NCBI GenBank assembly: GCA_963812015.1
Contig: CAWETI010000003.1
Coordinates: 1,952,001 to 2,016,000, forward strand
Direction: 5' to 3'
DNA: 64,000 bases
DNA from: an uncultured delta proteobacterium
Lineage (GTDB): Bacteria > Desulfobacterota > Desulfobaccia > Desulfobaccales > 0-14-0-80-60-11
How positions within the stretch are numbered: the first letter of the stretch is position 1; each line of letters begins with the position of its first letter. Below the pieces are notes generated by a model that did not search any database, had not been told where the DNA came from, and worked only from the letters and a program-made list of their open reading frames with translations. Position numbers and translations under genes: made by a program. Of this stretch, positions 5,565 to 49,038 are shown piece by piece.

Positions 5565-8500
5565 CTATGGCCTCGGGTGCGGGTGGTCGATAACCAACTT
5601 CTCAAAATAGCTTACTGCATCCGCTCGGGTCCAAAGCCCCACGAAACCCTGGAGGAGACGGTCGGCGCTATACTCCACTTTAAGCTCGCCATCAAGGTAG
5701 CCTTTAAGGGTGCGACCCTGCACCACCACGGAGATTTCATGCCACTCTCCCAGGGTGATGGTAGCCGCGACCTTGAACCGGAGGAAGCGCTTGTTGTTCA
5801 CATATTCAAAAAGCGCGAAGTTATCCTCCAGAGCGTTGATGCGGAGGACAAAGTAATTGCCCACGCCCCGGATGGCAAAGGCCAGGCCGGCCACTTGATC
5901 GATCTTGCCGGCCGATACCTGGGCCTTAACCCGGAGCACTGCGTCGGTGACGAAGCTTTCCTTGGCGATGGCCAGAGGGAAGTAAAAGTGGGCTCCGATA
6001 TTATCCAGAAATTCCTTATACTTGACGCCAACAATCCGGCCCATAAACGACGCCAGTCCTGATGACACCCCCCAGCCGTAACCGGAGCCATCTTCCAGGA
6101 TAAGACTGCGGCCCTCCTGCGTCACCCGTCGCCAAACCCCTGTAGGAGTGTAGAAATCCGGCAGGCGATTTTCCTGAGACAACCGGAAAAAATCGTAATC
6201 ACCGCGGAAAAAGGCAGCCACCATGCGGTCCACGTCTGCTTCGCTGGCGATGGCTACGTCCAGCAGGCGGCTGGCCCCCAGCAAACGTCCCAACTGGTCT
6301 AAAACGGCTTCCATCTCAGCTGCCGCCAGGCCACTCATTGAGGCATCCAAAAGGTCGCCAGTAATTCTCAGCTTGCAGCCCAGGTGGATCAGGACCTTCC
6401 CCAGGAAGCTCAGGCGCAGGGAGCGACCGGCCTGGGTACCGGCCCCGCCGGAGAATTGTAAAGAAAGATAGTTGTTTTCCGGCTTGTCCCCCATCATGAC
6501 GTCCAGGTTAGCGTAATGGTAGCCGAACTTGGCGCTGAGATTGGCATATTCCCGGGAAATAACCGCGAAGCTGTCCCCCCCGGGCAGCTCCCCTGGCCTC
6601 TGAGACATCCCCCGGGCCATGAGGGTGAGAAAGTCCCGAGTGCCCACGGTGATGCCCCCGGTCCAGTTGATCCCAGGGTGGGACAATCCCCGCCACACGG
6701 CCTTCATCGGCACGGACTCAAGGTTCTCCGAGGTCACCTCGTCGCAGGTGGTCAACCCTTTACTGAGCCCGCCGCCAAGGTCGATAAGGTAGAGCGGGAA
6801 GGGGATGTTGGTGGTGAGTCGAGCTGCCACGGTCTCCCCTGGGCCGGCCTCGGTCAGGCCGAACATCTCGTGCATGGCCCGTTCGTGGGCAAAACGGATG
6901 ACATCGTGCAGCGTCCGGCAGCCGGAAGGAGTAAAGTCCAAGGCCTGGGGATCAGTGAGGTTTAAGGGTGACAGTTTGTCCAGCACGGCTCGCAAGCGCT
7001 TATGCATGGGGCTGTTGATGATATGTTTCCGGGTTGGCCGAGCGTTTTCAGATAGAGAGCTCACCACCCCCTGGTAAACCGCCCCGGCGTCCGCCACCAG
7101 GGTGATCTCTTGGCCGTTCACCAGGGTCTGGGTGGCGGTAGCTGCATTCAGGAGGGCTGGAATGCCGAACTCCCGGGCCACGGAAGCCAAGTGGCTGGTA
7201 ATGCTCCCCACATCGGTGATGAGGCCCTTGATGCGTCCCATGAGGCTGGCGTAATCCGGTGACGCGGTCCGGGCTACCAGGATGGCGTTTTCCGGTGGCG
7301 TGGCGCTGCCCTCCCGGCTCGCCAGCCACACCACCCCGGCGGCCACGCCGGGGGAAGCAATTTTACCGCCGGCAAGCAACAGGGGGTGTCCCGGGATTTC
7401 CCGGGGTGCAGCCGGTTGCCGGCTTTTTCGCTGGATTAAGCCCAGAGGGCGGGACTGCAGAAAAAAGAGCCGGCCCTCCTGGTCCACAGCCCACTCCACA
7501 TCCTGCGGCCCCTGAAAATAGCGCTCCAGCTTCAGGCCCCCCTGGGCCAGGATGCGGATCAACTGGTCAGAAATGGCGGGGCGATCACGCTCTGCCTCGG
7601 GAGTATCCTCGAGGCTGAGGCCACCGCCAGGCTGGCTAACCAGTCGTCTGGCCTTGTTCCCGAGGCTCTGGTCCACCACGGTCAGAGTCTGCCGGTCTAC
7701 GAAGAATCCGTCCGGGGAGGTCTCACCACTCACCAGATACTCCCCCTGCCCCAGCACCGCACTGATCTTGAGCAATCCCGTTTCGGGTCGGGCCGGGTCC
7801 ACCGTGTATAGTACGCCGCTGGCCCGGGAATCCACCATGGTGATCCCGGCCACGCACATGGAGGTCTCCCGGTCATCCAGACCGTAGCGGAGCCGGTAAA
7901 GAATGGCCCGGGCGGCATACTTGCTGGCCACCACCTCCTGGTACGCCGGGAGAATCTCATTTTTCGTGACGTTGAGGCGGGTCGCGTATTGGCCGGCGAA
8001 AGAGGCCTTGGAGTCCTCTCCCACGGCACTGCTCCGCATGGCAATGCGTACTCCCCTTACGGTCCTGGCCTCCAGGGTCTCGTAAGCTGCCAAAATTTGT
8101 TCCGCCAGGACCGAGGGAATCGTAGCCTCCAGGATCATTGCCTGGATTTCCCGGCTTCCGGTTTCCACCTCCTCCAGGTTGTTGGGATCAATTGATGCCA
8201 GGAGGGTCTCGATGACCCGTATCAGCCGAGCTTCTTCCAGGAACCGGCCGAAGCCCATGGCGGTAACTACAAACCCCGGTGGAACCGGTAAGCCAACCCG
8301 CCGGGCCATGAGTGCCAGGTTGGTGGCCTTGCCCCCCGCCTCACCATAGGACGCGGCACTCAAAGCTTCCAGGGGGAGGACCAGCGGGCCCATCAGGCAG
8401 TGGGGGGGCGGGTAGTAGAGGGGGGCAATCTCCTGGGCCAGCCGGTCCACTACCCCCATCAAGGGGGCATAGCGGCCGCGCCCCATGCCGTCCAGGGCCT

Positions 8501-8732
8501 CTGCCAGCCGGTGGGTGGAGATCAGCAGATCCTGGGTCTGTTCTTCCACCTCCCGCATGTTAAAGGGCGCCCCGGTAAAATAGATCTGCTCCAGCTCCGC
8601 CAAGCGCTGTAAGGCAACGTAGTTGTGTCCGAGAAACTCTTTGAATAGGCGGTACTTTTCTACGATTTCGCCATCAAGGTTGACCAGCAAGCGGCAGGCT
8701 TTGTTGGTGGAAAAAAGGTCGATGATTTTCAA
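5565..8732 (-). CDS. PEP/pyruvate-binding (PPDK_N ATP-grasp) protein with phospho-His swivel domain and extra C-terminal domains
   Basis: GGKATNL, MRSSAVGEDSKASFAGQY, PQDVEWA, LQSRPL, GSITSHLASVAREFGIP; no PEP-synthase C-terminal barrel recognisable. Confidence 0.85.
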   Translation of the reverse strand: MKIIDLFSTNKACRLLVNLDGEIVEKYRLFKEFLGHNYVALQRLAELEQIYFTGAPFNMREVEEQTQDLLISTHRLAEALDGMGRGRYAPLMGVVDRLAQEIAPLYYPPPHCLMGPLVLPLEALSAASYGEAGGKATNLALMARRVGLPVPPGFVVTAMGFGRFLEEARLIRVIETLLASIDPNNLEEVETGSREIQAMILEATIPSVLAEQILAAYETLEARTVRGVRIAMRSSAVGEDSKASFAGQYATRLNVTKNEILPAYQEVVASKYAARAILYRLRYGLDDRETSMCVAGITMVDSRASGVLYTVDPARPETGLLKISAVLGQGEYLVSGETSPDGFFVDRQTLTVVDQSLGNKARRLVSQPGGGLSLEDTPEAERDRPAISDQLIRILAQGGLKLERYFQGPQDVEWAVDQEGRLFFLQSRPLGLIQRKSRQPAAPREIPGHPLLLAGGKIASPGVAAGVVWLASREGSATPPENAILVARTASPDYASLMGRIKGLITDVGSITSHLASVAREFGIPALLNAATATQTLVNGQEITLVADAGAVYQGVVSSLSENARPTRKHIINSPMHKRLRAVLDKLSPLNLTDPQALDFTPSGCRTLHDVIRFAHERAMHEMFGLTEAGPGETVAARLTTNIPFPLYLIDLGGGLSKGLTTCDEVTSENLESVPMKAVWRGLSHPGINWTGGITVGTRDFLTLMARGMSQRPGELPGGDSFAVISREYANLSAKFGYHYANLDVMMGDKPENNYLSLQFSGGAGTQAGRSLRLSFLGKVLIHLGCKLRITGDLLDASMSGLAAAEMEAVLDQLGRLLGASRLLDVAIASEADVDRMVAAFFRGDYDFFRLSQENRLPDFYTPTGVWRRVTQEGRSLILEDGSGYGWGVSSGLASFMGRIVGVKYKEFLDNIGAHFYFPLAIAKESFVTDAVLRVKAQVSAGKIDQVAGLAFAIRGVGNYFVLRINALEDNFALFEYVNNKRFLRFKVAATITLGEWHEISVVVQGRTLKGYLDGELKVEYSADRLLQGFVGLWTRADAVSYFEKLVIDHPHPRP

Positions 8733-9131
8733 CGGTGACTCCGCGGTCAGATAGATATCTCTTCACCCCGACGGGCCCGAGACCAGCCCGGTTGCTTTAT
8801 GACGGGGTTAACGGCTTGCCTTCTGGGGAAATTATACCCTGAATTTATCGACCTGCGTACCCTACGTTTACCGACTTATGCCCTGAGGAGACCTGATAGG
8901 AGAAATCTTGTCTGCGCTCCTGGTCTGATTATGGGTCCCATCCCTGGGGTCGCACAAATATCGGTCTTGGTAACTAAGCAGAAAATCCGGGCTTGCAGTG
9001 GGACATCCCAAAAGCTGAGGGCGCCGCGGATACTCTAAATTTTTTCTGGTTTCTGACGATATAGGAAAAGGAGGCGTTCAAATTGATGGTGACCCAGGTC
9101 TTATGTTAACAACTGGAGTTATTATTACCAT

Positions 9132-9547: not shown

Positions 9548-12500
9548 TCATACCAAAGCATCCATCAGTTCCCTGGCATGCTTCAGGTAGGCTTCGAAGC
9601 CACATTCTTCAAAGACCCGGATGGCCTCCGAGACATACTCCCTGGCCTTGGCTCGTCGCCCTCTAAATTTAAAGAGCACCCCCAACTGCAGACAGGGTTG
9701 CCCCAAGAACCCCCGGGCTCCCGTTTGTCTAGCCAATTGCACGGCCTTGGTCAGGTGCCGCTCGGCTTTTTTACCCGCAAAAGGAAGATTCTTGATGAGA
9801 AAACCAAAGTTCTTGCAAAAGGCGGCGAGGCCCTTTTTACCGGACCTCTGGGCGATCTGTAAGAAGATACTGCCCAAGATGAACTCGGACAAACTGGCGA
9901 ACACGCTCCTTTGAAACTCCATGAATTCGCGGCTGACACTCTCGACCAGCCTGATACCTTGGGCTAACTGGCCCTGGGCCGCCAAAGCCACGCCCAAGAA
10001 CAGGTTGGCGGTGGTCTTCAGGTATTCGGTCTGTTCGGTTTCACTGTAGGCGATCACCTGGGTTAGCAGATCTTCGGCCCGCTCAAACTCCCGCCTCTGC
10101 ACCAGAAACATACCAAGTAAAAGCTTGCCGAATATCGCATGGTACGGGTCCCCATGGGTAATGACTTTCTGGGTATGCTCCACGGCCGGTTCCATATCCA
10201 GATCCACGAAATGCCGGAAACCCATGAGCAAATTTCCCACCATCTGGCAGCGGAGACTCGAAATCTTCTGGCCATAGTCTAAAAGGCCCTGGGCGCTCTC
10301 GTGAAGCCTCTGCCGGTCACCGAGGAACCAGCCGATGTAGCCTTTGCCGGAGTAATACGTTATATAGAAAAAGGGGTCGGAGGCAAAGAGTTCCAGCATG
10401 TCCTGGGTGCGCTGCTCAAACCTGACCGCCTCTTCCAGGTAGCCCATTTCCGCGCAGGTCTTGATGAGAAAGCTGCACGCCAAACCGATGACCTGCTGGT
10501 TGCCGGTCTGGTCGCCCAGGGCCAGGGCCTGGTGCAGGTACCGGTAAGAATCCCTAAGTTTGGCCCCCTGCCAAAAAGTTGCATGTCCCAACCAGGCGTA
10601 ATACGCCCCTACCCTGGCTTTATCATCCAAAGATTCAGCTAACTCCACATGGCCCAAGAGCTGTTCGGCCATGGCCTCGAAACGGCCCTGATAATAAAAG
10701 ACCATGCACCACTCTATCAAAAGATCAATGAGGAGAACGTCTTCCGGTTTTGATCTGGATTGATTTTGGGAAAGCAAGCCATGAGCTTCCCGGTAATACT
10801 GGTTTGCTTCTTCAAGGGCATAGCGTTTGACACTCTTTTCTCCGGACTTTACCAGGTAATCCACGGCCTTGTGGACCGAGCGGCCCCGTTTGAAGTGAAA
10901 GGCCAAGGTCTCCCAAGACTCCAACGACCTTTCCCGGCAGAACTTTTCCAAGGCGAGGCCGACGCGCTCATGGATATTCTGGCGTTGCTTTTTGAGAAGC
11001 CCGTCATAGACGGCTTCCTGAATCAAGGCATGTTTGAAATAGTACTCCACGTCCGGGTGGGTTGACCCGACCCGAATCAAATCAAGCTCCTGCAACCGAT
11101 GCAGGTGTTGGTCGATGGGCTCTTCCTGGGTGGTTATGCTCTCCAGGATTTCATAGTAAAACGTCCGACCAATGACCGAGGCCTCCTGCAGGAGTTCTTT
11201 GGCGGCCGCGTCCAGGCGATCCAGCCTTGCCGTAATAACCCCCTGGATGGTGGCCGGCACCATGATTTCCTGGCTGGTTCCGGTGAAGCGCCAGTCTCCG
11301 TCATGGGCTACGAGTATGCCGGACTCGATGAGGGAGTTGACCACTTCCTCCACATAGAAGGGATTGCCCCCCACCTTCGCTTGCATAACCTGCTGCAAGG
11401 GCAAAGGGATGGCCTCGGTTCTCAGCAGGGAACCCACCAGCAGCTGGGTTTCCGAAGGTAAGAGATCTTTAAGTCGCACCTCTCGGTACGAATCCCCCAT
11501 CGCCCGGATGTGGTCTGGGGAAAAGATGGTAAGCGGCGGCCGGTAGATGCACAAGAACAGCGCTGGATAGTTTAATTTGGCCAACAGTAAACGCAACAGT
11601 TCCAGGGACGACGGGTCGGCCCAGTGCAGATCCTCCAGGCTGATGATCGTCGGCCCCCGGCGCACCAAAGCCCCCATCAACGTCAGGAACGCCCTATGCA
11701 AATGGGCCTTCCAGGCGTCGGGATTGATATCCACCGCCTCAAGATAGGGAATCGACAGAATCTCCCCCAAGTAGGGCAGCACCGCATCTCCATCACCCAT
11801 GATGGTTTTGACCATGCTTTCCGCTTTTTCCCTGGCCAGCTCAGGCGGATCGCTTTCCTCGATCTTAAACGTCCGGTTAAGGAGATCGATCAGCGGGTAG
11901 TAGGGGACATTTTGAGCGTAGGCATAGGCGTGACCTTCGTACCACTTGATTGAGGCCGGGTCCAGGCGGGACTTGAATTCCTCAATAAGCCGGCTCTTCC
12001 CGGTTCCCGCCTCCCCAAAAATAGAGATGACCGAGCCTTTGCCTTCCAGCAGGTTGCCCACGGCTTTTTCCAGTCGCGCCATTTCCCTGTCTCGCCCGAT
12101 CAAATCCGCTCGCAGGCCGGAGATTCGATGCGTCTTGCTGGGCAATTCCTTGGCGCCTAAAACCCGGTAGACCTGCACCGGCTTGGTTCGGTTTTTGACT
12201 TTGACCGGCTCAAGCCGTTCAAAGAAAAAAAATCCTTCCGCCAGGCCAGAGGTGATATGTCCCACCAGGGTCTCGTCGGCTTTGGCCAGGCCGCACAACC
12301 TCGAGGCCACATTAACGGTATCCCCCGCCACCTGGTGGGTGCCGTCGTCGGAGTGGATTTCCCCGGTCACCACCAGCCCGGTATTGATACCGATATGCAC
12401 GGCTAAGGGCTGGCCGATGCGGGCCTGGAATTTCAGACTGAGGGCTCCCATGGTCCGGTGAATCTCTTGGGCGGCCCGGATGGCCCTGATGGGATCATCT

Positions 12501-38355: not shown

Positions 38356-38366
38356 GGACATTGACT

Positions 38367-40397
38367 ATGGCTGCCAAAATAAAAGCTCATTCGTTGTTTG
38401 ATAAGACGATACTCATACCGGCGATCTGGGATTCCTTTCGCAAACTGGCCCCGCGCCTGATGGTGCGGAACCCGGTGATGTTTGTGGCCATGGTGGGAGC
38501 AGTAGTGACCACGGCCAAGCTCTTCTATACTCCGCTCCACGGTGGGTCCTTCGGCTTTTTCGTGCAGATTGCCCTCTGGCTCTGGTTCACGGTGTTGTTC
38601 GCCAATTTTGCGGAGGCTATGGCAGAAGGCCGGGGCAAGGCCCAGGCGGCCACCCTGCGCAAGGCCCGCACCCAAACCCTGGCGAATCGGCGTCTCCCCA
38701 ATGGCGTCATCGAGACCGTGCCGGCAGAGTCCCTGCGCAAGGACGATATCTTCGTGGTCATAGCCGGGGAGGCGATCCCGGCGGATGGCGAAGTCATTCA
38801 GGGCGCCGCGACCGTGGATGAGTCGGCCATCACCGGTGAGTCCGCCCCGGTCATTCGCGAGGCCGGCGGCGACCGCAGCGCCGTGACCGGCGGCACCCGG
38901 GTGCTCTCGGATGAAATCGTGGTGCGGGTCACCGCCAACCCGGGGGAAAGTTTCATGGACCGGATGATCGGTCTCATCGAGGGGGCCAGCCGCCAGAAAA
39001 CCCCCAACGAAATCGCCCTGACCATCCTGCTGGCAGCCCTGACCATCATCTTTCTCGTGGTTATTGTAACCTTGAAACCCTTCGGGGCTTATGCCGGGGT
39101 AGCGTTTTCGGTCCCGGTCCTGGCCGCCTTGCTGGTCTGCCTGATCCCCACAACCATCGGGGGGCTGTTGAGCGCCATCGGCATTGCCGGCATTGACCGG
39201 CTGGTGCAGAAAAACGTGCTGGCCATGAGCGGCCGGGCCGCGGAGGCCGCGGGCGACGTGGACGTGCTGCTGCTGGACAAGACCGGGACCATCACCCTGG
39301 GCAATCGCCAGGCGGTGGAGTTCCTCCCCGCCCCCGGCGTGGAAGTGAAAGAACTGGCCAATGTGGCGCAACTGGCCTCCCTGGCTGATGAAACCCCTGA
39401 GGGCCGCAGCATCGTGGTGCTGGCCAAAGAACACGGCTTGCGGGGGCGGGACCTGCATGAGTTCCCCCAGGCCCGTTTCGTGCCTTTTTCGGCCAAGACC
39501 CGCATGAGCGGCCTCGATATCGACGGGGACCGCTTCCGGAAGGGGGCTGCGGATGCTGTGCGTGATTTTGTCGGCTCGTCACTGCCCAAAGAAGTGGAGG
39601 GCGAGATCGAGCGCATCGGCTTCTTGGGCGGCACGCCCCTGGTGGTGGCCAGCGCCGAAAAAGTCTTTGGCACCATTTATCTCAAAGACATTGTCAAGGG
39701 CGGTCTGCCGGACCGCTTTGAGCGCTTCCGGGCCATGGGGATCAAAACCATCATGATCACCGGCGACAATCCGCTGACCGCCGCGGCCATCGCCAAAGAG
39801 GCGGGGGTGGATGATTTCCTGGCCGAAGCCAAGCCCGAAGACAAGCTGGCCCTGATTCGCCGCCAGCAGGCGGCCGGACACCTGGTGGCCATGACCGGAG
39901 ATGGGACCAACGACGCGCCGGCGCTGGCCCAGGCCGACGTGGGGGTGGCCATGAATACCGGCACCCAGGCGGCCAAAGAGGCCGGCAACATGGTGGACCT
40001 GGATTCGAACCCGACCAAGCTCATCGAGGTCGTGGAAATCGGCAAACAGTTGCTCATGACCCGGGGAGCCCTGACTACCTTCAGCGTGGCCAACGATGTG
40101 GCCAAATACTTTGCCATCATCCCCGCCATGTTGATGGCGACCTTTCCGCAAATTGCCCCGTTCAATATCATGAAACTGGCGTCGCCGGAAAGCGCCATCC
40201 TCAGCGCGGTGATCTTCAACGCCCTGATTATCATTGCCCTGGTGCCCCTGGCCCTAAAAGGCATCAAGTTCCGGCCGTTAGGGGCGGTGGCGATCCTGCG
40301 GCGTAACTTGCTAATCTATGGTCTGGGCGGGGTGGTGGCGCCGTTCATCGGCATTAAGCTCATCGACTTGATTATCGTAGCCTTTCGACTGGTTTAA
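38367..40397 (+). CDS. kdpB: K+-transporting ATPase subunit B (P-type ATPase)
   Basis: [33 protein letters not shown]. Confidence 0.97.
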
Positions 40398-40421
40398 GTT
40401 TTCTTGTAAGGGGAATGAATA

Positions 40422-41030
40422 ATGAATGCTCAGGAACTGTTACAGGAAGTCAAAATGTCGGTGCTGGTCACGGTGGTCCTGGTAATCTTGTTATGCGGGG
40501 TTTACCCCCTGGTGGTGTGGGGCATTGCCCAAATAGCTTTTCCAAGTCAAGCCAACGGCTCTTTGGTGGCACGACAGGGTCAGGTTGTGGGCAGCGCCCT
40601 CATTGCCCAAAATTTTACCAGCCCGCAGTATTTCCACCCGCGACCCTCGGCTGCGGGCGACGTCAGCTATGACGGCACCAGCTCCGGCGGCAGCAACCTA
40701 GGGCCCCTGTCTCAAAAGCTCGTGGATCAAATAAAGGAACGCCTGGCCGCGTATCGGGCAGAAAACCATCTGGCCCCCAATATTCCCATCCCGGCGGATG
40801 CCGTAACCGCCTCCGGAAGCGGCCTGGACCCCCACATCAGCCTGAAAAATGCGGAGATCCAGGCAGCCCGGGTGGCAATCGCCCGGGGACTAAACCTGGA
40901 CCAGGTCGCTCAACTCATTGAGACCTGTATTGACGGCCCTGGCCTGGGTTTCCTGGGTGAGCCGGGGGTCAATGTACTCAGGGCCAACCTGGCCCTGGAC
41001 GCGCTGGCGAGTGGGTCCCATGGCGGATGA
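40422..41030 (+). CDS. kdpC: K+-transporting ATPase subunit C
   Basis: QANGSL, YFHPRPSA, SGGSNLGP, DAVTASGSGLDPHIS, GEPGVNVL. Confidence 0.96.
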   Translation: MNAQELLQEVKMSVLVTVVLVILLCGVYPLVVWGIAQIAFPSQANGSLVARQGQVVGSALIAQNFTSPQYFHPRPSAAGDVSYDGTSSGGSNLGPLSQKLVDQIKERLAAYRAENHLAPNIPIPADAVTASGSGLDPHISLKNAEIQAARVAIARGLNLDQVAQLIETCIDGPGLGFLGEPGVNVLRANLALDALASGSHGG

Positions 41031-42171
41031 TAAAGCCCTCAGCTTCCTGCGCCTGATCCGCCGCTCCCAACGCGGGAAGCTGAAGGTCTATCTGGGGTAC
41101 GGGGCGGGGGTGGGAAAAACCTGGCAGATGCTCAAGGAAGGGCAGCGCCTGGCAAAAGAGGGTGTCGATGTGGTCGTGGGCCTGGTGGAGACCCATGGCC
41201 GGGAAGAAACGGCCCAACTCATCGAGGGTCTGGAAGTCGTTCCCCGCCGGCAGGTGCAGTATCGCGGCATCACCATCGAGGAGATGGACCTGGAAGCGGT
41301 CCTGGCCCGTCGGCCCGAAGTCGCCCTGGTGGACGAACTGGCCCACACCAATGTACCCGGGAGTAAAAACGTCAAACGCTACCAAGATATCCAGGATCTG
41401 CTGGCCGCGGGCATTCACGTCATCAGCACCCTCAACGTCCAGCATCTCGAAAGCCTCTATGATACCGTGGAGGCCCAGATCGGGGTGAAAGTCCATGAGC
41501 GGGTCCCTGATTCCGTCATGGCCGAGGCCGATGAGATCGTCAACGTGGATTTGGCCCCGGAGGATTTGCAGCAGCGGCTTAGGGAGGGCAAGATTTACCC
41601 GCATGAGCGGATCTCCACGGCCTTGGAGAACTTTTTTACGCGCGCCAACCTCAATCAACTGCGGGAGTTGACGCTCCGGGAACTTGCTTCCCAGATCGAC
41701 CTCAAACGCCGGGGTGAACCTGACGAGGAACAGGATACCGCCCCGGATCAGGTCATGGTATGCCTGAGCTCCCGCGGCCCCAACAGCGCCGCCCTGTTAC
41801 GCTATGGCTCCCGGCTGGCCGGCCGTCTGAACCGGAACTGGTATGCGGTCTATGTGCAGACGTCCCGGGAAGAGCCTACCACCATCGACGCGACCACCCA
41901 ACGCCAGCTTTCAGATACCTTGACGCTGGCCAAGCAATTAGGCGCCCAGGTCTTTCCTTACAAGGGTGAGGATGTGGTGGCGACCATTTTGCACTTTGCC
42001 AGGGAATACCGGGTAGGACACATCGTGATCGGCAAACCGGGCCCGCTACCCGCCTGGAGACGCTGGCTTGGAGGGAAAACTATTGTGGAGCAATTAATCC
42101 ACCACGCCCATGGCGTCACCATTGTCGTAGTGGATACCGGTTCAAAACCGGAAAAGGAAGCATCTCAATAG
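41020..42171 (+). CDS. kdpD: Short KdpD (N-terminal KdpD domain plus Usp domain; no TM or kinase domain)
   Basis: GKLKVYLGYGAGVGKT, VETHGR, VDELAHTN, NVQHLESL, LRELTLR; ends after the Usp domain. Confidence 0.88.
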   Translation: MADDKALSFLRLIRRSQRGKLKVYLGYGAGVGKTWQMLKEGQRLAKEGVDVVVGLVETHGREETAQLIEGLEVVPRRQVQYRGITIEEMDLEAVLARRPEVALVDELAHTNVPGSKNVKRYQDIQDLLAAGIHVISTLNVQHLESLYDTVEAQIGVKVHERVPDSVMAEADEIVNVDLAPEDLQQRLREGKIYPHERISTALENFFTRANLNQLRELTLRELASQIDLKRRGEPDEEQDTAPDQVMVCLSSRGPNSAALLRYGSRLAGRLNRNWYAVYVQTSREEPTTIDATTQRQLSDTLTLAKQLGAQVFPYKGEDVVATILHFAREYRVGHIVIGKPGPLPAWRRWLGGKTIVEQLIHHAHGVTIVVVDTGSKPEKEASQ

Positions 42172-42242: not shown

Positions 42243-42882
42243 GGGTCTGTAAATAATTCTGTGTAAATGGTAATCAAAACACAGGAGGATTTACAGGTGA
42301 CGATCGACGATGAAATCATTCAGCAGCTCCAGGAAGACCTCAAGGAGTGCAAGTATATAGATGATCTCTTGGGGAAAGATGGAGCCATTAAGAAACTCAT
42401 CAAGAAGACCGTCGAGCGTATGCTGGACGCCGAACTGACCGAACGTCTGGGTTATGAGAAGCATTCCCCTTCAGGAAAGGGGGCCGGCAACAGCCGCAAT
42501 GGTTCCAGCGCCAAGACTTTAATGATGACGCTTTAAGGAAACTGTCGTATCTGTCGTACCGGGCGATAGACCCAAAATGGACGATGCCACTGCGCAACTG
42601 GCCGTTTATTATCTCGTAATTTTCGATTATGTTTGAGGGGAGGTTAGGGATGGCCTTGACGTAACTCGGTCAGCTTTTCGAGCCAGAGCCGAAGGAGCGC
42701 TTCTCTCGCCGGCGCCTGCCTACACATTAGCAGGAGCCAGGCCAGGCAGTCAAGGCCGAGCGCAGCGAGCCGTAGGGTTAGCCTTGACAGGCTGCCGGCT
42801 CATGCTATTTTCTCAAGGTAGAGGCGAGAGAGGAAATTCAAAACTCAGAAAAACCCATTTACACAAAAAATCTTACAGTCTC
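42243..42882 (+). mobile_element. Internally deleted IS256-family element (640 bp)
   Basis: Inverted repeats gggtctgtaaataattctgtgtaaatgg / gagactgtaagattttttgtgtaaatgg; transposase N-terminus (LDAELTERLGYEK...NSRNG) joined directly to the C-terminus (KWTMPLRNW...*FSIMFEGRL). Confidence 0.85.
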
Positions 42883-43066
42883 CCTTGACCGGATAATCTT
42901 CTTTGATTGGCGACATTAGTTTGTTCACCCGGCCATTCTCATAGACCACCACGGTTTCCACCAGGGCTGCCACGTCCTCGGGATCATGGGTTATGAGTAT
43001 GACCGGGATGGTAAACCGCTCTTTAATCTTCAAGAGTGCCTGGCGCATCTTGGCCCGCAGCAGGGT
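42883..43066 (-). pseudogene. C-terminal remnant of a ModC/CysA-type ABC ATPase
   Basis: LLRAKMRQALLKIKERFTIPVILITHDPEDVAALVETVVVYENGRV; N-terminus absent, 3' end runs into the IS. Confidence 0.6.
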
Positions 43067-44729
43067 CCTCTTGGATGAAAATCCCTTGGGCCCCGTCTAA
43101 ACGATACAGTCGATCAACGGCGAGGGCCGGATGGCGCTCATGGGTGAGAATCAAAATGGTTGCGGTACTTTTGCAAGCGTTGATGACCTCGGCAAGGAGT
43201 TTGCGTGCCCTGTCGTCGAGGTTTGACCATGGTTCATCGAGGATCATGATCGGCGATTCTCTCAAGAGCAGCCTGGCAATGCAAATCCGCTGCCTCTCAC
43301 CAGTGCTGGCCCCGATGCCGCGCGGGTCCATTACGGTTTCAATGCCCTGAGGCAAACGCGCCACAAAGTCCTTTAACTGGGCGCGTTCAAGGGCCTGGAA
43401 AATCTGTCGGTCACTCGCGTCCGGCTGCGCGATAAGGAGGTTGCCTCTCAGCGTCTCCTGGAAGATAAAGTAATTCTGGGTGACAACCCCAACTTTCCTC
43501 CGCAGCTCGGTGCGTGAAATCCGCCGGATGTCGATCCCGCCGATGGAGATGACTCCTTCCTGGGGTGCATAAAGGCGGAGGAGCAAATTGATGAGAGTGG
43601 ATTTGCCGCTTCCACTTTCGCCGCCAATGACGGTGACGGCATGGGCGGGAATGAGCAGGTGCGCCCGGTTGTAGAGCTGCCGCCCTCCCGGGTAACCGAA
43701 GGTTAGACTGGATAACTCGATGGCGACGGATTGGCTTGGCAGAGTTTCCGTGGGGTGGCTCTCTTCCGCCTCAGGGGCTTCAGCGAGAAATCCGGCCAGA
43801 TGTCGAATCCCGGTAAATTCGGTCTGCACGGTGGCCACCAACCTGGTGAGTTGGGTGACCGACATCTGCAAGAGGGTGGCATAAAAGAAAAAAAGCAAAA
43901 AAGGCTCGAGACCCATCTTACCGCGGGCGATGAGGTAATAGGCCAGGGCCACCAACCCTAAGCCGCCCAGTTGGGTGAGAAGCTCAATACCGGGGGAAAA
44001 CACCGAGAGCACCGCCCCGGCTCGTACAGAAAGCTTCTTCAGTCCGGTGGTGTGCTTCTGGAAATGTGCCGCTTGCTGCCTCTCGGCAGCCAGTACCTTG
44101 ACGGTGTCGATCCCCTGAATGGTTTCGTCGAAGACCCGCTGTATTTCGCTCCACGTGGCCCGCTGAGCCCTGGCATAAAAACCCATAATTCGGTTGAGGA
44201 CGGTCACGAGTATCGCGGTGATGCCCACGATGCCAAGGGCCGCAAGGGTAAGCGAGGCTGGGCAGAAATAAAAGAGCACGGCCGTCACCGCCAGAGCGGT
44301 GATGAGTTCGCGCCCGACACCGGGAAGAAAATCAGCGAAGAACCGCTGGGCCTGCGCAATATCACTGGTGAACTTGGTGAAAAATTCGCCGGCAGATTGC
44401 TTCTGGAAATAGAACAAGGGCAGGTGGCTTGCCTTATCGAAAAAATCGGTTTGAAGCTGCTTGAGCAGGTTGAAAGAAAAGACGGTGCCAGTATACCCGC
44501 TAATCCCTTGCAGCACTGCGATGGCCAGGAAGATCAGGGCTAGTTGCTCGAGCAAGGGCAGCCCCGAGGTCCAAAGATTGGCGTATTGGCCATTGATGGC
44601 AAGGCTTACCAGCTGTTGATAGTAGCGCGGCTGCAGCGCCATGAGCACCCCGCAGCCGAGCTGCACGATAACTAAGAGCGCCAAAGGGAAGCGATAGCGT
44701 GAGATGACGCCAGTTATCCAGGATCTCAT
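43023..44729 (-). CDS. ABC exporter (TMD plus NBD, no C39 peptidase), putative RiPP exporter
   Basis: N-terminal TM domain, Walker A GESGSGKST, degenerate signature ASTGERQR, MILDEP; ATGA overlap with the upstream rSAM gene. Confidence 0.9.
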   Translation of the reverse strand: MRSWITGVISRYRFPLALLVIVQLGCGVLMALQPRYYQQLVSLAINGQYANLWTSGLPLLEQLALIFLAIAVLQGISGYTGTVFSFNLLKQLQTDFFDKASHLPLFYFQKQSAGEFFTKFTSDIAQAQRFFADFLPGVGRELITALAVTAVLFYFCPASLTLAALGIVGITAILVTVLNRIMGFYARAQRATWSEIQRVFDETIQGIDTVKVLAAERQQAAHFQKHTTGLKKLSVRAGAVLSVFSPGIELLTQLGGLGLVALAYYLIARGKMGLEPFLLFFFYATLLQMSVTQLTRLVATVQTEFTGIRHLAGFLAEAPEAEESHPTETLPSQSVAIELSSLTFGYPGGRQLYNRAHLLIPAHAVTVIGGESGSGKSTLINLLLRLYAPQEGVISIGGIDIRRISRTELRRKVGVVTQNYFIFQETLRGNLLIAQPDASDRQIFQALERAQLKDFVARLPQGIETVMDPRGIGASTGERQRICIARLLLRESPIMILDEPWSNLDDRARKLLAEVINACKSTATILILTHERHPALAVDRLYRLDGAQGIFIQEDPAAGQDAPGTLED

Positions 44730-45835
44730 GGCTCTGGGTTGGCGTGGGACTTTCTGTGCAGGTCTGCCAGGGCTCGATGGATTCTTGCAAATATGAGCTG
44801 ATAATCTTTGCAGAAAGGGTCCTTGGCCATATGGTCACCACAAAACACCAAGGCGTTGAGGGGGCACCCGCCGTGGCAGATTGACCAGTGCATACAGGTG
44901 TGACAGGCTGAAAGCGTCTCGGCTCGCCGCCGAATATCTTCACAAAAAGGTGAAGCCATCAATTCCTGGATTTCACGGTCGTGGATATTACCTAAGGGGT
45001 GGGTCTCAAACCGGCTGCACAGCACGGCATCCCCGGAGGGTTTCACTCCCAGGTGCGACCCGACACAGGTGCCTTGCTGCTGGCATTCGTAAGGCACACC
45101 ACCAAGAATTGCCTCCAGGTACAGGTCCAGAGGCGACACTGTGACCCGCTGGCGTTCCGTACTGGCCCATTCGTCGAATAAGCGGCAAAGAAATGAGCCA
45201 TATTCCCCTGGCTGAAGCAAGGATGGTGTAGAGCTCTCTGGGTTGCTTCCCGGAATCATCGGGTTAACGCGGAAACCGTACCCGAGGCCCTGAAAGTACT
45301 GGTAGATTTCCTGCTCCTGACCCAGGCTCCGCCGGCTAACGACCGCGTTGAACCCCGCTGACACGCCCTGTTCTTCCAAAAGGCGAACTTTCCCCAAAAC
45401 CGCCGCGTGGCTTCCCTGCCCATCTGCACCGATTCGCATCGAGTCGTGCAAGACTTGGGGGCCGTCGAGGCTAATACCAATCTGGAACTCGTGGTCACGG
45501 AAAAAGGCACAAAAGTCATAATCGAGGAGCAGGCTGTTGGTCTGGAGATAATGATGGAATCTCAGGTCCGAGGCAAGCCCGTCAAGAATTTTCATCGCCG
45601 CCCTGAAGAACCCGAGGCCCGCCAGGAGGGGTTCTCCCCCGTGCCAGAGGATATGGATTTCCCTGAACCCATGGCGCTCGGCATAGCGGGCCGTTTTTTC
45701 CAAAGCCGTCTGCAGCGTCTGCCGGCTCATGACGCCGGTCCCGGCACCGTCCGAATAGCAATATCGGCAGCTTAGATTGCAGCGCTTCACCGGCTCCAGG
45801 ATAAGGGTGAAGGCGTCGTTGGCATCAACCGGCAT
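44726..45835 (-). CDS. Radical SAM/SPASM peptide maturase 2
   Basis: CNLSCRYC, WHGGEPLL, SLDGP; SPASM cysteines CQQQGTC...LCSRF...CHTCMHWSICHGGCP...FC. Confidence 0.9.
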   Translation of the reverse strand: MPVDANDAFTLILEPVKRCNLSCRYCYSDGAGTGVMSRQTLQTALEKTARYAERHGFREIHILWHGGEPLLAGLGFFRAAMKILDGLASDLRFHHYLQTNSLLLDYDFCAFFRDHEFQIGISLDGPQVLHDSMRIGADGQGSHAAVLGKVRLLEEQGVSAGFNAVVSRRSLGQEQEIYQYFQGLGYGFRVNPMIPGSNPESSTPSLLQPGEYGSFLCRLFDEWASTERQRVTVSPLDLYLEAILGGVPYECQQQGTCVGSHLGVKPSGDAVLCSRFETHPLGNIHDREIQELMASPFCEDIRRRAETLSACHTCMHWSICHGGCPLNALVFCGDHMAKDPFCKDYQLIFARIHRALADLHRKSHANPEP

Positions 45836-47090
45836 TGGCGAGCTCCCGCCGGACGGCTTCCCGCAGGTGGTGACGGAAAGTCCTCAATCCCTCACAGAAG
45901 TACGTCTCCCCCCGGACCTCATCCCAAGCGGGGGGGAGAACGGCGTCGGCCCAGCGGTTGTCAGGCAGCCCCTCTGAGCGGGCGCGGAGCAGCATAGCAT
46001 TGTATTTCATGCAGGTGAAACACCCCCCGCCACACTGCTGGCCCCATTCACAGCCTCCACAGGCCATGTGTTTCCCGGACCGCCGAATCCTCTGCTTAAT
46101 CTTTTCCCACAGGACGGCCTTGTTCGTTAAAATGGTAGCCAGAGAATCCTGGTGGATATCTCCCAGGGCCGTCTGCTCATCATTCACCCATTGGTCACAG
46201 CTGAACACCCTGCCATTGGGGGCAAAAATAAGGCGCCGGAAGTCGCACCGTTTCTTGTGGAATGGGTCGCCCAGCTTGATTTCCGGCTGCAGGACCATCT
46301 TGACTTCTTGCCGCAATTCTTTGAAATCCACCTGCCCCTCCTGGTCCCAGAACCAGAGATCAAACAATTCGATCAGAAACCGTCCCACTTCTTCCGGCAG
46401 TGGGGCAAGGTCTGACAACCCTGAAACCTCGCCGGCCTCCGGGATCAGGTCCAGCCAGCGCACATCATAGATGTCCAGCTGGACCTCTGCTCTCAATTTC
46501 TTGAAGAATTCAAACAGGTCGAAAGCGCGGTCGATGCTCGCCCGGGTAACCACGGCAATCACTGCCACGCGGTCTGCCATGGCGTGACGGCGGTAATGTT
46601 CAATGCCACGCAGGGTGGCATCAAAAGACCCGGCGCGCGAGCCTGGAGAGCACCGGTACCGATCGTGAATCTCCTTGGGCCCATCGAGGCTGAAGCCCAC
46701 CTGAAATTGATATTCGCCGAGCAATCGAGCCATATCCTCGCTCATGAGGGTCCCGTTGGTCTGAATCCGGTTTTCAAAAGAAAGCTCAGGATACTGAGCC
46801 TCGAGACGGATGATGGCGCGAAAAAAATCGCTGCCCGCCAGCAGGGGCTCGCCGCCGTGCCAGTAGATCTGCATTACCTTGGTGAGAGGATCAACGGTCA
46901 GATTATGGGCGATGACGCGGCGCAGAATCGTCTCAACCGTAGAGAGGGCGATAATACCCCCGGAATGCTCCTGGAAGCAATACCCACACGCCAGGTTGCA
47001 GTTCCGAGTTACCTGGATTTGGGGCACCACCGGTAGACGTTTTTCCCAATCGGGACCGCATGGTTGTATAAGGGAGAGATTTTCCGTCAT
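45825..47090 (-). CDS. Radical SAM/SPASM peptide maturase 1
   Basis: CNLACGYC, YWHGGEPLL, QTNG, FSLDGP; SPASM RC...SCD...CGGCEWGQQCGGGCFTC...FC. Confidence 0.9.
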   Translation of the reverse strand: MTENLSLIQPCGPDWEKRLPVVPQIQVTRNCNLACGYCFQEHSGGIIALSTVETILRRVIAHNLTVDPLTKVMQIYWHGGEPLLAGSDFFRAIIRLEAQYPELSFENRIQTNGTLMSEDMARLLGEYQFQVGFSLDGPKEIHDRYRCSPGSRAGSFDATLRGIEHYRRHAMADRVAVIAVVTRASIDRAFDLFEFFKKLRAEVQLDIYDVRWLDLIPEAGEVSGLSDLAPLPEEVGRFLIELFDLWFWDQEGQVDFKELRQEVKMVLQPEIKLGDPFHKKRCDFRRLIFAPNGRVFSCDQWVNDEQTALGDIHQDSLATILTNKAVLWEKIKQRIRRSGKHMACGGCEWGQQCGGGCFTCMKYNAMLLRARSEGLPDNRWADAVLPPAWDEVRGETYFCEGLRTFRHHLREAVRRELANAG

Positions 47091-47182
47091 GGAAATGCAC
47101 AGGAATTTGAGGCACTGGACGTATTCTACAGTTTGGGAAAGTCTAATGCCAGGTGAGTTGCGTGATCAAAATACTGCACACT

Positions 47183-47289
47183 AGAGGCCTTTCAAAACTC
47201 TGAGCGAAGCGAAGAATCTAAATTTTCAAATACATAGACCTTTCGCTGCGCTCAGGGTGAGAGAAAAAAAGCGGTTTTGCAATGATTGC
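47183..47289. repeat. Palindromic repeat / MITE between precursor and maturases
   Basis: ctgagcgaagcgaagaatcta...tagacctttcgctgcgctcag stem; related copy at 56179-56306. Confidence 0.65.
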
Positions 47290-47294
47290 TAATA

Positions 47295-47480
47295 TCACGT
47301 CCACCAATTGAACCAGTTGTGCCAGTTGGACCAGTTGTGCCAATTCCTCCAGTTGCGCCAATTCCCCCAGTTGCCCCAGAATGGGAATCCTACCCGCCTC
47401 TTCTTTTCCTGGCGGATTTCCTCCAGGAGTTCACGGAGGATCTTGTTCTTAACTTTTGTACCTTGAAGAATCCCAGCCAT
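47295..47480 (-). CDS. Putative RiPP precursor peptide (61 aa) with tandem W-x-N core
   Basis: MAGILQGTKVKNKILRELLEEIRQEKKRRVGFPFWGNWGNWRNWRNWHNWSNWHNWFNWWT; RBS gaggagg; directly upstream of two rSAM/SPASM genes. Confidence 0.88.
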   Translation of the reverse strand: MAGILQGTKVKNKILRELLEEIRQEKKRRVGFPFWGNWGNWRNWRNWHNWSNWHNWFNWWT

Positions 47481-47697
47481 GGCGTCCTCCTCACTATCTC
47501 GATCTCGGCGGAAAGGCATTTCCGTAAGTTAGGTAGTTGATTCCTTCCGGTCCTTTGATAGAGTGCCCCGGGACATTACAGGTCGCTTCCAGTTTTTGCG
47601 GAGCGTTTTTAAAATTGGCATCCGTGGTTATTCCCGGATTAGGCACCGCAATTTTCTTGGCTCTCGATTTTATCGGGTTATTCTTTCTCCCTGGATT

Positions 47698-48162
47698 CTA
47701 TTTAACAATTGGGATACATACCTTTGGCATACATTTCATGCGCCAGCGCTCCATGGCCACCAGATAATTACCTTGCTGGACCGGGCTCATTTGGGCCAAT
47801 TCCTCGTTCAGCTGATTCCTAAAAGAAGCAAACAACTTAGCCTGCGCGGCCGTGTAAGCCTTTACCAGATCTTTGACCTTCGCCTCGTCAGGCTTGGGCG
47901 CTGCTAAGGCGGCCTGCAAATCCTCCCAAGATTTCTTCGATTCGTCGACGATATCTCCGCGCATTGACGAATATTTTGCTTCCAACGCTTCAACCGCCTT
48001 TTCTTTATCCGGGGCAACCTTCAATTCTTTGAGCGTCTGCGCTTTATAGTCCTTGAGCTGTTTCCCCAGCTCCTCATCCGTCTGACCCAGGGCGGGAACC
48101 ACCAGCAGAAAGCTCAAGATGGTGGAGAGTGCCCCCAGTTTGAAAATGAGCTTACCTTTCAT
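47698..48162 (-). CDS. Secreted Spy/CpxP/ZraP-like helical periplasmic protein
   Basis: Signal peptide ending VPALG; all-helical; PDEAKVKDLV and MSPVQQ (LTxxQ-like); aaggagg RBS. Confidence 0.65.
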   Translation of the reverse strand: MKGKLIFKLGALSTILSFLLVVPALGQTDEELGKQLKDYKAQTLKELKVAPDKEKAVEALEAKYSSMRGDIVDESKKSWEDLQAALAAPKPDEAKVKDLVKAYTAAQAKLFASFRNQLNEELAQMSPVQQGNYLVAMERWRMKCMPKVCIPIVK

Positions 48163-48932
48163 TTTATCCTCCTTTTGAAAAGATGCTGGGCATATAGTGT
48201 GCTGCACTTAGCGTACTTGAAAGGTTGCTGGTGGCAGTGGCACCTGCTTTATCCTGACGCCCTGCCTTGCCCTTACCCCGCCGCCAATCCTTGCGGTCCG
48301 TCTGTTCCCTTCCAGGTAGGATATCTATTTAAAGCACAAACTTGGTAAAGCCGTCAAGTAAATTATGGGGAAATTTCTTGCATCAGGGGCGAGAGTGTAA
48401 TCCCGGACTTTGGGTTTCCAGGGGAAAAATCTTCAGGATAGAGCGGTTGACGTGGCAGACGGTTTGGCGAATAGTGGACGCCAGGAGGATTAGGTTCGGG
48501 GCCGTCAGGCAGGGGCAGACAATTTGCCGCGGGCAATTGCAATGAATGTCTTGACCCTTCATCTAGCGAAGTTAAGAACTTCGCATATCCAGATCATCTC
48601 TAGCCCGAGATTATGCAGCAACCTTGGCCTCCGCAATCCAAAGAAGGTTTTTGGGACCTCTTGCCCAGAAAACATCCCCCAAAGTTTCTGTTCTTGAAGC
48701 CGAATTCTCTCGTCGACCCCATGATAGCAAAAGTTTCCTTGAAAAAATCGATAGCCATATCTGTCTCCCAGGGAAGCGATTTCTGTACAAGTTTTGTACA
48801 AAATGCCTTCCCTGGATAAATTATAATATATTGTTATTATTTGTAAATATCCGGGGGGAAATGGGGCTTTCGAATGGCTAAAAAGGGCCCCTGAAGTGCA
48901 GCAGCCATCAACCTCTGGGCAGGGACTCTTTT

Positions 48933-48977
48933 ATGGCATTCAAGGGGTCAGAGGTTCAAGTCCCCTCAGCTCCACCA
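48933..48977 (+). tRNA. 3' fragment of tRNA-Ala(GGC), att-like, not a full tRNA
   Basis: atGGCattcaag-gggtc-agaggTTCAAGtcccct-cagctccACCA gives the anticodon loop through CCA; 5' acceptor strand and D-arm absent. Confidence 0.75.
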
Positions 48978-48996
48978 GATTTTAGAAAGAATTATG

Positions 48997-49038
48997 AGGG
49001 GTTGGCAATCGAGCGGTTGTCGGCCCCTTTTCCTTTTG
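48997..49038 (+). terminator. Rho-independent terminator-like hairpin after the tRNA fragment
   Basis: aggggttggcaatcg-ag-cggttgtcggcccc followed by ttttcctttt. Confidence 0.6.

Follow-up and report, generated by a model that had tools for sequence, protein, structure and literature searches.

The window analyzed here is a stretch of 64,000 nucleotides (nt) from an uncultured delta proteobacterium (assembly GCA_963812015.1, contig CAWETI010000003.1, positions 1,952,001 to 2,016,000), and coordinates below count from its first letter unless a contig or locus is named. Positions 43057-48367 on the minus strand of this window hold a five-gene cassette that can be assigned with high confidence to the peptides that are made on the ribosome and modified after translation (RiPPs). 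The cassette encodes a precursor peptide with a core of contiguous Trp-x-Asn (WxN) triplets, two paralogous radical S-adenosylmethionine (SAM) enzymes with SPASM domains (rSAM1 and rSAM2), an ATP-binding cassette (ABC) exporter, and a CnrX/CpxP/Spy-like protein termed Up169. The case at the level of the cluster is strong. Its main modification is probably a series of three-residue cyclophanes joining Trp to Asn; we infer the type of bond, how many rings form, what the two enzymes and Up169 do, and the biological activity of the product.

The genes run head to tail on the minus strand: the precursor gene (47295-47480; 61 amino acids, aa) is followed by rSAM1 (45825-47090; 421 aa), rSAM2 (44726-45835; 369 aa), and the exporter gene (43023-44729; 568 aa). 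The rSAM1 and rSAM2 genes overlap by 11 nt (45825-45835), and the rSAM2 and exporter genes overlap by an ATGA (44726-44729). Pfam models identified Radical_SAM and SPASM domains in both enzymes, and ABC_membrane and ABC_tran domains in the exporter, a half-transporter without a peptidase domain. An earlier note on this DNA, made from its letters alone, had described four co-oriented genes with the same two overlaps, had called the two rSAM/SPASM enzymes and the exporter, and had read the core as FPF-WGN-WGN-WRN-WRN-WHN-WSN-WHN-WFN-WWT. The coordinates bore out every detail of this layout, the Pfam domains agreed with the calls, and the core was an exact match to the translated peptide. The fifth conserved gene, up169, and the extent of a discrete 5.3-kb cassette were additions to that description.

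The precursor lies within a 74-aa open reading frame (ORF; 47295-47519) containing an internal ATG at 47480, from which the 61-aa peptide (MAGILQ...NWWT) is read. This start was preferred because most homologues begin at the same Met and because the Shine-Dalgarno sequence GGAGGA (47485-47490) stands 4 nt ahead of it. The peptide consists of a helical leader (approximately residues 1-31), with the conserved motif VKNKVLRELLEEIRQE, and a core of the form FPF-(WxN)8-WWT. Structure prediction modeled the leader as a helix over residues 2-30 (predicted local distance difference test, pLDDT, 58-77); the core modeled alone gave a low-confidence helix (pLDDT 52-64) that was not informative. The unmodified core has 30 residues, 10 of them Trp and 8 Asn, with a mass of 4220.5 Da and an isoelectric point (pI) of about 12. 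No Pfam or NCBIfam model matched the precursor. The pattern (W.N){3,} occurred once in the 7,913,294 six-frame residues of the host genome, at the precursor itself.

A search of 5.8 billion proteins returned 46 precursor homologues at E ≤ 1.4e-11, all annotated merely as "hypothetical"; a 47th match (E = 1) was excluded. A profile of these homologues matched 71 clusters at E ≤ 0.001, 30 of them at E ≤ 1e-10, among 1.84 billion representative sequences. Across 60 distinct cores comprising 503 triplets, the first position was Trp in 472 and the third was Asn in 420, with 50 of the exceptions at the third position being the Thr of the terminal WWT. The second position was free, accepting at least 15 residue types (G 134, R 116, H 74, W 64, F 29, L 22, N 17, Y 13, S 12, and Q 8 were the counts). 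Cores carried 5 to 10 WxN triplets, mostly 7 or 8, apart from one truncated record with a single triplet. Asn was encoded by AAC 177 times and by AAT 25 times, with both codons present in 12 of 27 distinct core DNAs; this synonymous variation therefore indicates selection on the protein in this frame. The WxN repeat is not a product of chance. At the DNA level the repeat showed a better period at 18 nt than at 9 nt (84% vs. 72% matches). This period records how the repeat was duplicated and gives no support to a functional unit of six residues, because core length variants differ by single triplets. Some natural cores exchange one WxN for HHH or HHW, or carry ARRRHW (e.g., FPFWGNWHNHHHWRN...). 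His in place of Trp at the first position would fit enzymes that accept other aromatic residues.

A fixed Trp, a fixed Asn at i+2, and a free residue between them are what a three-residue Trp-Asn ring predicts, and the cyclophane reading rests in part on this agreement. Triceptides carry bonds from an aromatic residue to a C-beta within aromatic-X-X motifs, linking residue 1 to residue 3 (PMC11499958), and the precursor family showed such motifs with residues 1 and 3 conserved. According to PMC11002830, XncB joins Trp C6 to the C-beta of Arg or Asn and OscB joins Trp C7 to the C-beta of Asn or Asp, in both cases from i to i+2. Xenorceptide A2 is described as having WVN, FAR, and WSK cyclophanes (10.1101/2024.12.16.628070). 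The chemical background given in the earlier note, cyclophanes in W-x-N motifs and cross-linking of W-N-W by DarE, is thus in print for XncB and OscB, xenorceptide A2, and darobactin.

Sixty of the 71 profile clusters were inspected, the remainder including P0206, P0227, and P0230-P0235. Most of the inspected matches were peptides of 47-66 aa with the same helical leader followed by (WxN)n. Within the close family, the FPxW junction between leader and repeat and the WW[TN] end were as conserved as the repeat itself. In the wider family the junction was often PKAW, PQAW, or VAW instead, with the repeat retained.

Conservation of the neighborhood ties the peptide to the two enzymes. With one genome per species, the genome scan gave 18 loci, nearly all labeled as metagenome-assembled genomes (MAGs) of Desulfobaccales or of a "delta proteobacterium", in line with the deltaproteobacterium-like host guessed in the earlier note. 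The order up169 (154-169 aa), precursor, rSAM1, rSAM2 was found in 17 of the 18 loci, the 18th being a contig of 967 nt, and the ABC gene came next in all 15 loci of sufficient length. Among 80 metagenome loci, 13 with family-level likeness were inspected; the others (L043-L109, 67 loci) were 25-34% identical. rSAM1 preceded rSAM2 in 12 of these 13, and the 13th locus starts within rSAM2. Homologues of rSAM2 formed a continuum down to approximately 44% identity. In four divergent loci, where identity was 44-55% for rSAM2, 51-60% for rSAM1, and 50-58% for the ABC protein, a peptide with (WxN)5-10 still lay immediately upstream; FPYW...NWWN and FPHW...NWWN are examples of the cores. The gene cluster proposed in the earlier note, with its order and overlaps, was therefore kept in 17 of 18 genome loci and in metagenome loci, and the conserved synteny it had suggested looking for extended to 44% enzyme identity. 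No up169 copy was seen in the two divergent loci with upstream sequence, and for this reason the constant set is taken to be the peptide, the two rSAM/SPASM enzymes, and the exporter, with up169 as an addition of the close family. A locus labeled "Maribacter" (L020) was rejected as evidence of host range: it is a 967-nt contig, the peptide did not turn up in 400 further genomes sampled from that phylum, and the contig is probably misbinned.

The cassette had sharp ends in comparisons by blastn with 17 genome loci, covering the upstream region, up169, the precursor, rSAM1, rSAM2, and the ABC gene. At the low end, 12 of the 13 loci that reach it stopped at 43053-43068 and the remaining one (L009) continued to 42902; at the high end, 10 of 17 loci stopped at 48362-48368. 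Among 216 flanking ORFs, no ORF family was common to more than two loci. Taken together, the sharp ends of the 5.3-kb segment and its unrelated flanks indicate that it moves as a unit. Using rSAM2 as query at E ≤ 1e-50, 3 of 12 further genomes from this family contained the cassette, and a sample of 388 others from the phylum contained none; the element is patchy and insular. No cassette turned up in plasmid sequences, where the best matches to rSAM2 had no more than 33.6% identity and carried sulfatase-maturase annotations, and a signal-peptide form of the precursor (described below) found no match among plasmids.

Both maturases look catalytically competent, to judge from their cysteines. 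The invariant Cys residues of rSAM1 are 31, 35, and 38 (CxxxCxxC) together with 282, 298, 344, 347, 353, 357, 360, and 399; those of rSAM2 are 19, 23, and 26 together with 251, 257, 273, 311, 314, 320, 324, and 342. Each enzyme thus keeps the CxxxCxxC motif and a full SPASM cysteine set. The two are 28-32% identical to each other. Their closest solved structures are the anaerobic sulfatase-maturating enzyme (anSME) 4k36/4k37, the radical SAM domain of ChlB (9gm3), and CteB (5wgg). The features general to rSAM/SPASM RiPPs, namely a short precursor, the CxxxCxxC motif, a SPASM domain, and kept synteny, were all present.

The likeness to anSME raises the alternative that the enzymes are sulfatase maturases, or serve some other protein, and that the small ORF is not their substrate. 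The anSME model (TIGR03942) was the best NCBIfam match of rSAM1 (180.9 bits, followed by DynA at 179 bits) and the second of rSAM2 (230.6 bits), and an anSME is the closest solved structure. Both scores nevertheless fall short of the anSME cut-off of 349.45 bits, and the true anSME of the host (488 bits) adjoins a sulfatase on contig C2 (C2:837930-840327), while the nearest sulfatase on contig C3 is approximately 333 kb from the cassette. The peptide also stays with the enzymes where their identity falls to 44%, and the cassette moves as one unit between flanks that are unrelated. The sulfatase-maturase alternative is accordingly very improbable and close to refuted. A further rSAM/SPASM paralogue was observed in the host genome at C3:1141701-1142756, scoring 131 bits against the anSME model.

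The ABC exporter had MsbA as its best NCBIfam match (254 bits, under the cut-off). Its relatives have 559 aa and aligned over residues 1-559; the last nine or so residues differ in the window, where homology ends at 43057. Pfam and NCBIfam found no membrane-fusion or outer-membrane partner within the cassette. With no peptidase domain in the exporter and no such partner, export should therefore reach the periplasm, and removal of the leader should need an unlinked protease.

The protein Up169 (47698-48162, minus strand; 154 aa from its MKGK start) was tentatively placed by Pfam PF13801 (Metal_resist) at 30.1 bits, just above the cut-off of 29.2, and by synteny; the NCBIfam CpxP model gave 16.8 bits against a cut-off of 148. 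By eye, it has a hydrophobic N-terminal signal or anchor and two LTxxQ-like motifs. Its AlphaFold model (pLDDT 82.4) consists of four long helices, and Foldseek ranked NccX/CnrX best (E 0.016-0.07; template modeling score 0.5-0.7), followed by CpxP, ZraP, and Spy, and no match reached E ≤ 0.001. The gene was syntenic in the 17 genome loci at 52-76% identity. These models predict a periplasmic helical protein of the metal-sensor/chaperone superfamily; a role in immunity, as a chaperone, or as a sensor would be a guess. Most relatives share a C-terminal Cys pair, C-M-P-K-V-C-I-P (47698-47740), and a shorter subgroup has a single Cys. The pair could form a disulfide or a metal site.

A pathway can be proposed from these parts. 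The amphipathic helical leader of the precursor, through the motif given above, would recruit both rSAM/SPASM enzymes. Each would cleave SAM at its CxxxCxxC cluster to a 5'-deoxyadenosyl radical, which would take a C-beta hydrogen from Asn, the third residue of a Trp-x-Asn triplet. The Asn radical would then attack the indole of the Trp two residues upstream, and the auxiliary SPASM clusters would accept the electron, yielding a three-residue cyclophane with a loss of 2 Da per ring. Repetition along the core would give 5-10 contiguous rings without spacers, the host genome encoding eight WxN triplets; the flanking FP[FYH] and WW[TN] triplets may be modified too. For the division of labor between the two enzymes, subsets of triplets, the end motifs, and a second type of bond are all candidates. 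The ABC half-transporter would move the product across the inner membrane, an unlinked protease would cut off the leader, and in the close family the periplasmic CnrX/CpxP/Spy-like protein would handle the product, sense it, or protect against it. The product is likely a rigid, cationic, Trp-rich peptide active on the cell envelope.

Several observations weigh against the cyclophane reading, beginning with the enzyme scores. Neither enzyme reached a curated NCBIfam cut-off for a cyclophane synthase (XyeB, GrrM/OscB, FxsB, DynA, etc.), and the scoring against XyeB, GrrM, FxsB, DarE, and anSME models that the earlier note had proposed left both under every curated cut-off. The best match of rSAM2 was DynA (NF041298), with 257.1 bits over the whole model; the DynA cut-off is 450. 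For rSAM2 and rSAM1, respectively, scores were 88.1 and 78.3 bits for XyeB (TIGR04496; cut-off 450), 134.1 and 119.6 bits for GrrM/OscB (TIGR04261; cut-off 310), 122.5 and 92.9 bits for FxsB (TIGR04269; cut-off 370), 137.8 and 108.4 bits for YhhB (NF041707; cut-off 445), and 128.1 and 100.6 bits for AmcB (NF041718; cut-off 425). The DarE model (NF038005; cut-off 650) gave 115.2 and 92.5 bits. The named families GrrM/OscB, YhhB, AmcB, FxsB, XyeB, DarE, and DarW thus all remained below their cut-offs and under the DynA and anSME scores. Since no curated cut-off was reached, the type of bond is argued from the substrate motif and from distant kinship. The second enzyme is likewise unexplained, because characterized triceptide synthases install several rings alone. 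To this is added that Pfam and NCBIfam found neither a protease nor a RiPP recognition element in the cassette.

One alternative is a RiPP made by both enzymes through chemistry other than Trp-to-Asn carbon-carbon (C-C) cyclophanes. Candidates include ether or carbon-nitrogen (C-N) links, Trp-to-Trp bonds from i to i+3, oxidation of the Asn C-beta (beta-oxo or aminomalonate-type), and epimerization; in one variant each enzyme would make its own bond, giving a fused ladder like the bicycle of darobactin. Two enzymes of such low mutual identity that are kept everywhere suggest two different reactions. DynA makes both C-C and C-N links; DarE makes ether and C-C links and can also make beta-oxo residues and formylglycine (PMC10705402). 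Each Trp in W-x-N-W-x-N has another Trp at +3, and the shortfall against the cyclophane families also speaks for other chemistry. Set against this, the Asn conserved at i+2 from Trp is the known acceptor of XncB and OscB (PMC11002830), the free middle residue suits a three-residue ring, and the cassette has no further tailoring enzyme. A different main chemistry is accordingly rather unlikely, and Trp-to-Asn cyclophanes remain the favored modification.

Binding of the precursor to the enzymes was modeled as a three-chain complex of rSAM1, rSAM2, and the precursor as scored partner, each with its own alignment. The precursor scored an ipSAE of 0.42 against both enzymes (runs 0.42, 0.44, and 0.37), and the best control, in which rSAM2 was kept and rSAM1 replaced, scored 0.05. 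Of 157 solved complexes, 116 pass the ipSAE mark, as do 2 out of 215 mismatches; passes at 0.60 or lower comprise 18 of the 157 solved complexes and both passing mismatches. Runs agreed in at least 26% of contacts, with a precursor pLDDT of 38. By the model's own description, a pass of this kind is wrong more often than right when the guess was not already likely, which is a further point against leaning on the model. The model lends weak support to binding of the precursor by the maturases and, if meaningful, hints that it docks on rSAM1.

The remaining point against the cyclophane reading comes from the profile matches themselves. About 14 of the 60 inspected were longer (73-116 aa) and, by eye, had a Sec-like signal peptide ahead of the WxN repeat (P0205, P0208, P0211, P0213, P0215, P0217-P0221, P0223, P0224, P0228, and P0229). 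These forms continue with a short helix, RVAAVRxAL, then AQW-(xNW)n, and end in FNR, GNY, LNY, or INF; they carry (WxN)7-9, with a last residue that is aromatic or Arg. All were singletons on metagenome contigs of 754-3611 nt without names. A signal peptide fits poorly with maturation by cytoplasmic radical SAM enzymes, which suggests that the WxN repeat may have a function of its own.

In its full form, this alternative holds that the WxN repeat is the functional module itself, for example as a cationic Trp-rich membrane-active peptide or as a beta-signal-like ligand of the outer-membrane assembly machine, and that the rSAM enzymes add minor or local changes, such as at the FP[FYH] or WW[TN] ends. 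It is kept open mainly because the signal-peptide forms exist, with the same repeat, and would have no need of an ABC exporter. The unmodified core is also strongly basic and has its 10 Trp within 30 residues, and members of the close family conserve the FPxW junction and WW[TN] end as well as the repeat. In the wider family, by contrast, the junction changes to PKAW, PQAW, or VAW with the repeat constant, which makes the repeat the constant partner of the system. Furthermore, an Asn at every third residue has no obvious role in a plain membrane-active peptide. An unmodified or barely modified functional repeat is therefore improbable.

A bolder version of the cyclophane reading is held tentatively, as possible and no more likely than that. 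Here 8-10 back-to-back Trp cyclophanes would form a rod over the whole 30-residue core, with both enzymes required (e.g., acting on alternating triplets, or making two types of bond fused into a ladder), and WxN would also serve as an envelope module in the Sec-dependent sister group. If this were true, the peptide architecture would have no described counterpart, and the repeat would be a new recognition element, for example a long beta-strand mimic for outer-membrane protein assembly.

Directly after the precursor stop, positions 47200-47254 (minus strand) fold as a long hairpin followed by UUUUG, a possible attenuator or mRNA stabilizer. The surrounding RNA (47091-47300) had a folding energy of -54.2 kcal/mol (z -3.3), with 0 of 200 shuffles as stable. 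The same type of hairpin (GAGCGC...GCGCUC) was present in four other loci (L016, L017, L036, and L037), other loci carried other hairpins, the hairpins of relatives being of two sequence types, and the region had z ≤ -2 in 13 of 24 loci. In a RiPP operon, a hairpin after the precursor gene is in keeping with a device that favors the precursor mRNA over that of the enzymes. In four metatranscriptome libraries from four studies, short contigs of at least 85% likeness lay on all five genes and covered 27-30 of 30 bins. Transcription in relatives from wetland and sediment samples could give such contigs, carry-over of DNA being possible as well. Positions 47525-47705 had almost no RNA-contig cover in all four runs; because this stretch is also unconserved between relatives, the gap carries no inference.

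Around the cassette, several fragments were observed. Two lie just past the end of the exporter gene: an N-terminal piece of a Mutator-family (IS256-like) transposase (42267-42536, plus strand; 35 bits for PF00872), and the C-terminal 67 aa of an ABC ATPase of the import type (42845-43048, minus strand). In the window, the cassette is not bordered by direct or inverted repeats. In locus L009 the cassette stands between direct repeats of approximately 510 nt with 81% identity (4675-5186 and 10609-11121 of that locus), and in L019 between 300-nt direct repeats with 96% identity that lie in dynamin-family genes (1611-1910 and 8498-8797); these repeats could be a trace of cassette insertion. Approximately 750 nt upstream of up169, positions 48863-49004 (plus strand) resemble the 3' end of a transfer RNA (tRNA) or transfer-messenger RNA (tmRNA), with T-arm, acceptor strand, and CCA. 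This fragment scored 21-23 bits against tmRNA models, under the gathering score, and is not a copy of the host's own tmRNA; ARAGORN called neither a tRNA nor a tmRNA gene in the window. The fragment may be what is left of an integration site. The host genome has two tmRNA genes of equal score (191 bits; C3:1901-2247 and C5:25265-25611), which may reflect a duplicated contig end or a second strain, the reported contamination of the assembly being 5.72%. Outside the cassette, the genes at 38361-42171 (plus strand) resemble, from a reading of their ORF translations, kdpB, kdpC, and a short kdpD-like gene with sensor N-terminal and Usp parts.

Most likely, then, the cassette of a relative of sediment sulfate reducers makes a heavily cross-linked natural product that has not been described. 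rSAM/SPASM cyclophane RiPPs are already known as a kind: about 3900 putative triceptide pathways have been counted, and ten maturases characterized (PMC11499958). No description was found of a core built only of contiguous WxN triplets with two obligate maturases outside the curated families, nor of a Desulfobaccales cassette with a periplasmic partner. Cores of the WxN type were not found in the literature searched, where the Trp-Asn, polycyclophane, and Trp-rich SPASM themes gave no relevant match. The supplement of PMC11499958 contained no WGNW, NWRNW, Desulfo, WxN, or Deltaproteobacteria. Unnamed "Aro-Xaa-Asn" clusters (19 and 63) are mentioned in a survey of the anSME-like subfamily from 2022 (PMC9062424). 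They may or may not include the present family; the text portion of that survey's supplement contained no WGNW, NWRNW, or Desulfo. The earlier note's statement that the arrangement was not recognizable as described is therefore uncontradicted as to family models and literature matches, and stays qualified by the "Aro-Xaa-Asn" clusters.

Among the cyclophane RiPPs of radical SAM enzymes, darobactin, dynobactin, and xenorceptide A2 are rigid mimics of a beta-strand and kill Gram-negative bacteria via BamA (for xenorceptide A2, 10.1101/2024.12.16.628070). With a core of only cross-linkable triplets, natural variants of 5-10 repeats, and a free middle residue, the WxN family amounts to a ready-made library. 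It allows one to ask how many strained rings fit side by side, by what steps an enzyme moves along a repeat, and why two paralogous maturases are required. With five genes in 5.3 kb, the system is compact, and it comes from uncultured anaerobes that are out of reach of cultivation screens. Should the rings prove contiguous, the cassette would yield an aromatic peptide of unusual length that is constrained throughout, which would be of interest for peptide materials and as an antibiotic scaffold.

Among known systems, anSME shares with the present enzymes the closest solved fold, a high model score, the eight-Cys pattern seen in rSAM2, and C-beta hydrogen abstraction on a peptide as the starting step; it differs in that both enzymes are under its cut-off and that no sulfatase partner lies near the cassette. 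The TvgB pathway to poly-cyclopropylglycine (IPR023867) is similar in having an anSME-like rSAM enzyme that iterates on core-filling TVGG repeats and a small cluster with transporters. Its chemistry, however, is on Val gamma-carbons within a different motif and uses one rSAM enzyme together with an iron/2-oxoglutarate enzyme. DarE is also an rSAM/SPASM enzyme that cross-links Trp in a short core to give a rigid beta-strand mimic. In darobactin (WNWSKSF) the links are W1-W3 (ether) and W3-K5, whereas the Trp residues here are three apart, with no W-x-W spacing.

DynA, the best match of rSAM2, is a short enzyme without an N-terminal extension, as here, and makes a Trp-to-Asn C-C bond, a further precedent for the proposed link. 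The Trp1-Asn4 ring of dynobactin (WNSNVHSYRF) nevertheless spans four residues, its second ring is a His6-Tyr8 C-N bond, and dynobactin has a single enzyme and a 10-residue product without a repeat. The triceptide systems (XncB/XyeB, OscB/GrrM, MscB/FxsB, YhhB, HaaB, and HtkB) use rSAM/SPASM enzymes without a separate recognition protein on repeated aromatic-X-X motifs, and the same holds here. The present cassette has neither the C39 or aspartic protease nor the HlyD partner of XYE clusters, as those are described in 10.1101/2024.12.16.628070. In comparison with triceptides, the cassette belongs to a Desulfobaccales lineage, its two paralogous enzymes are always present together and stand outside the XyeB, GrrM, FxsB, YhhB, and AmcB cut-offs, and its motifs are contiguous, 5-10 in a row, filling nearly the whole core.

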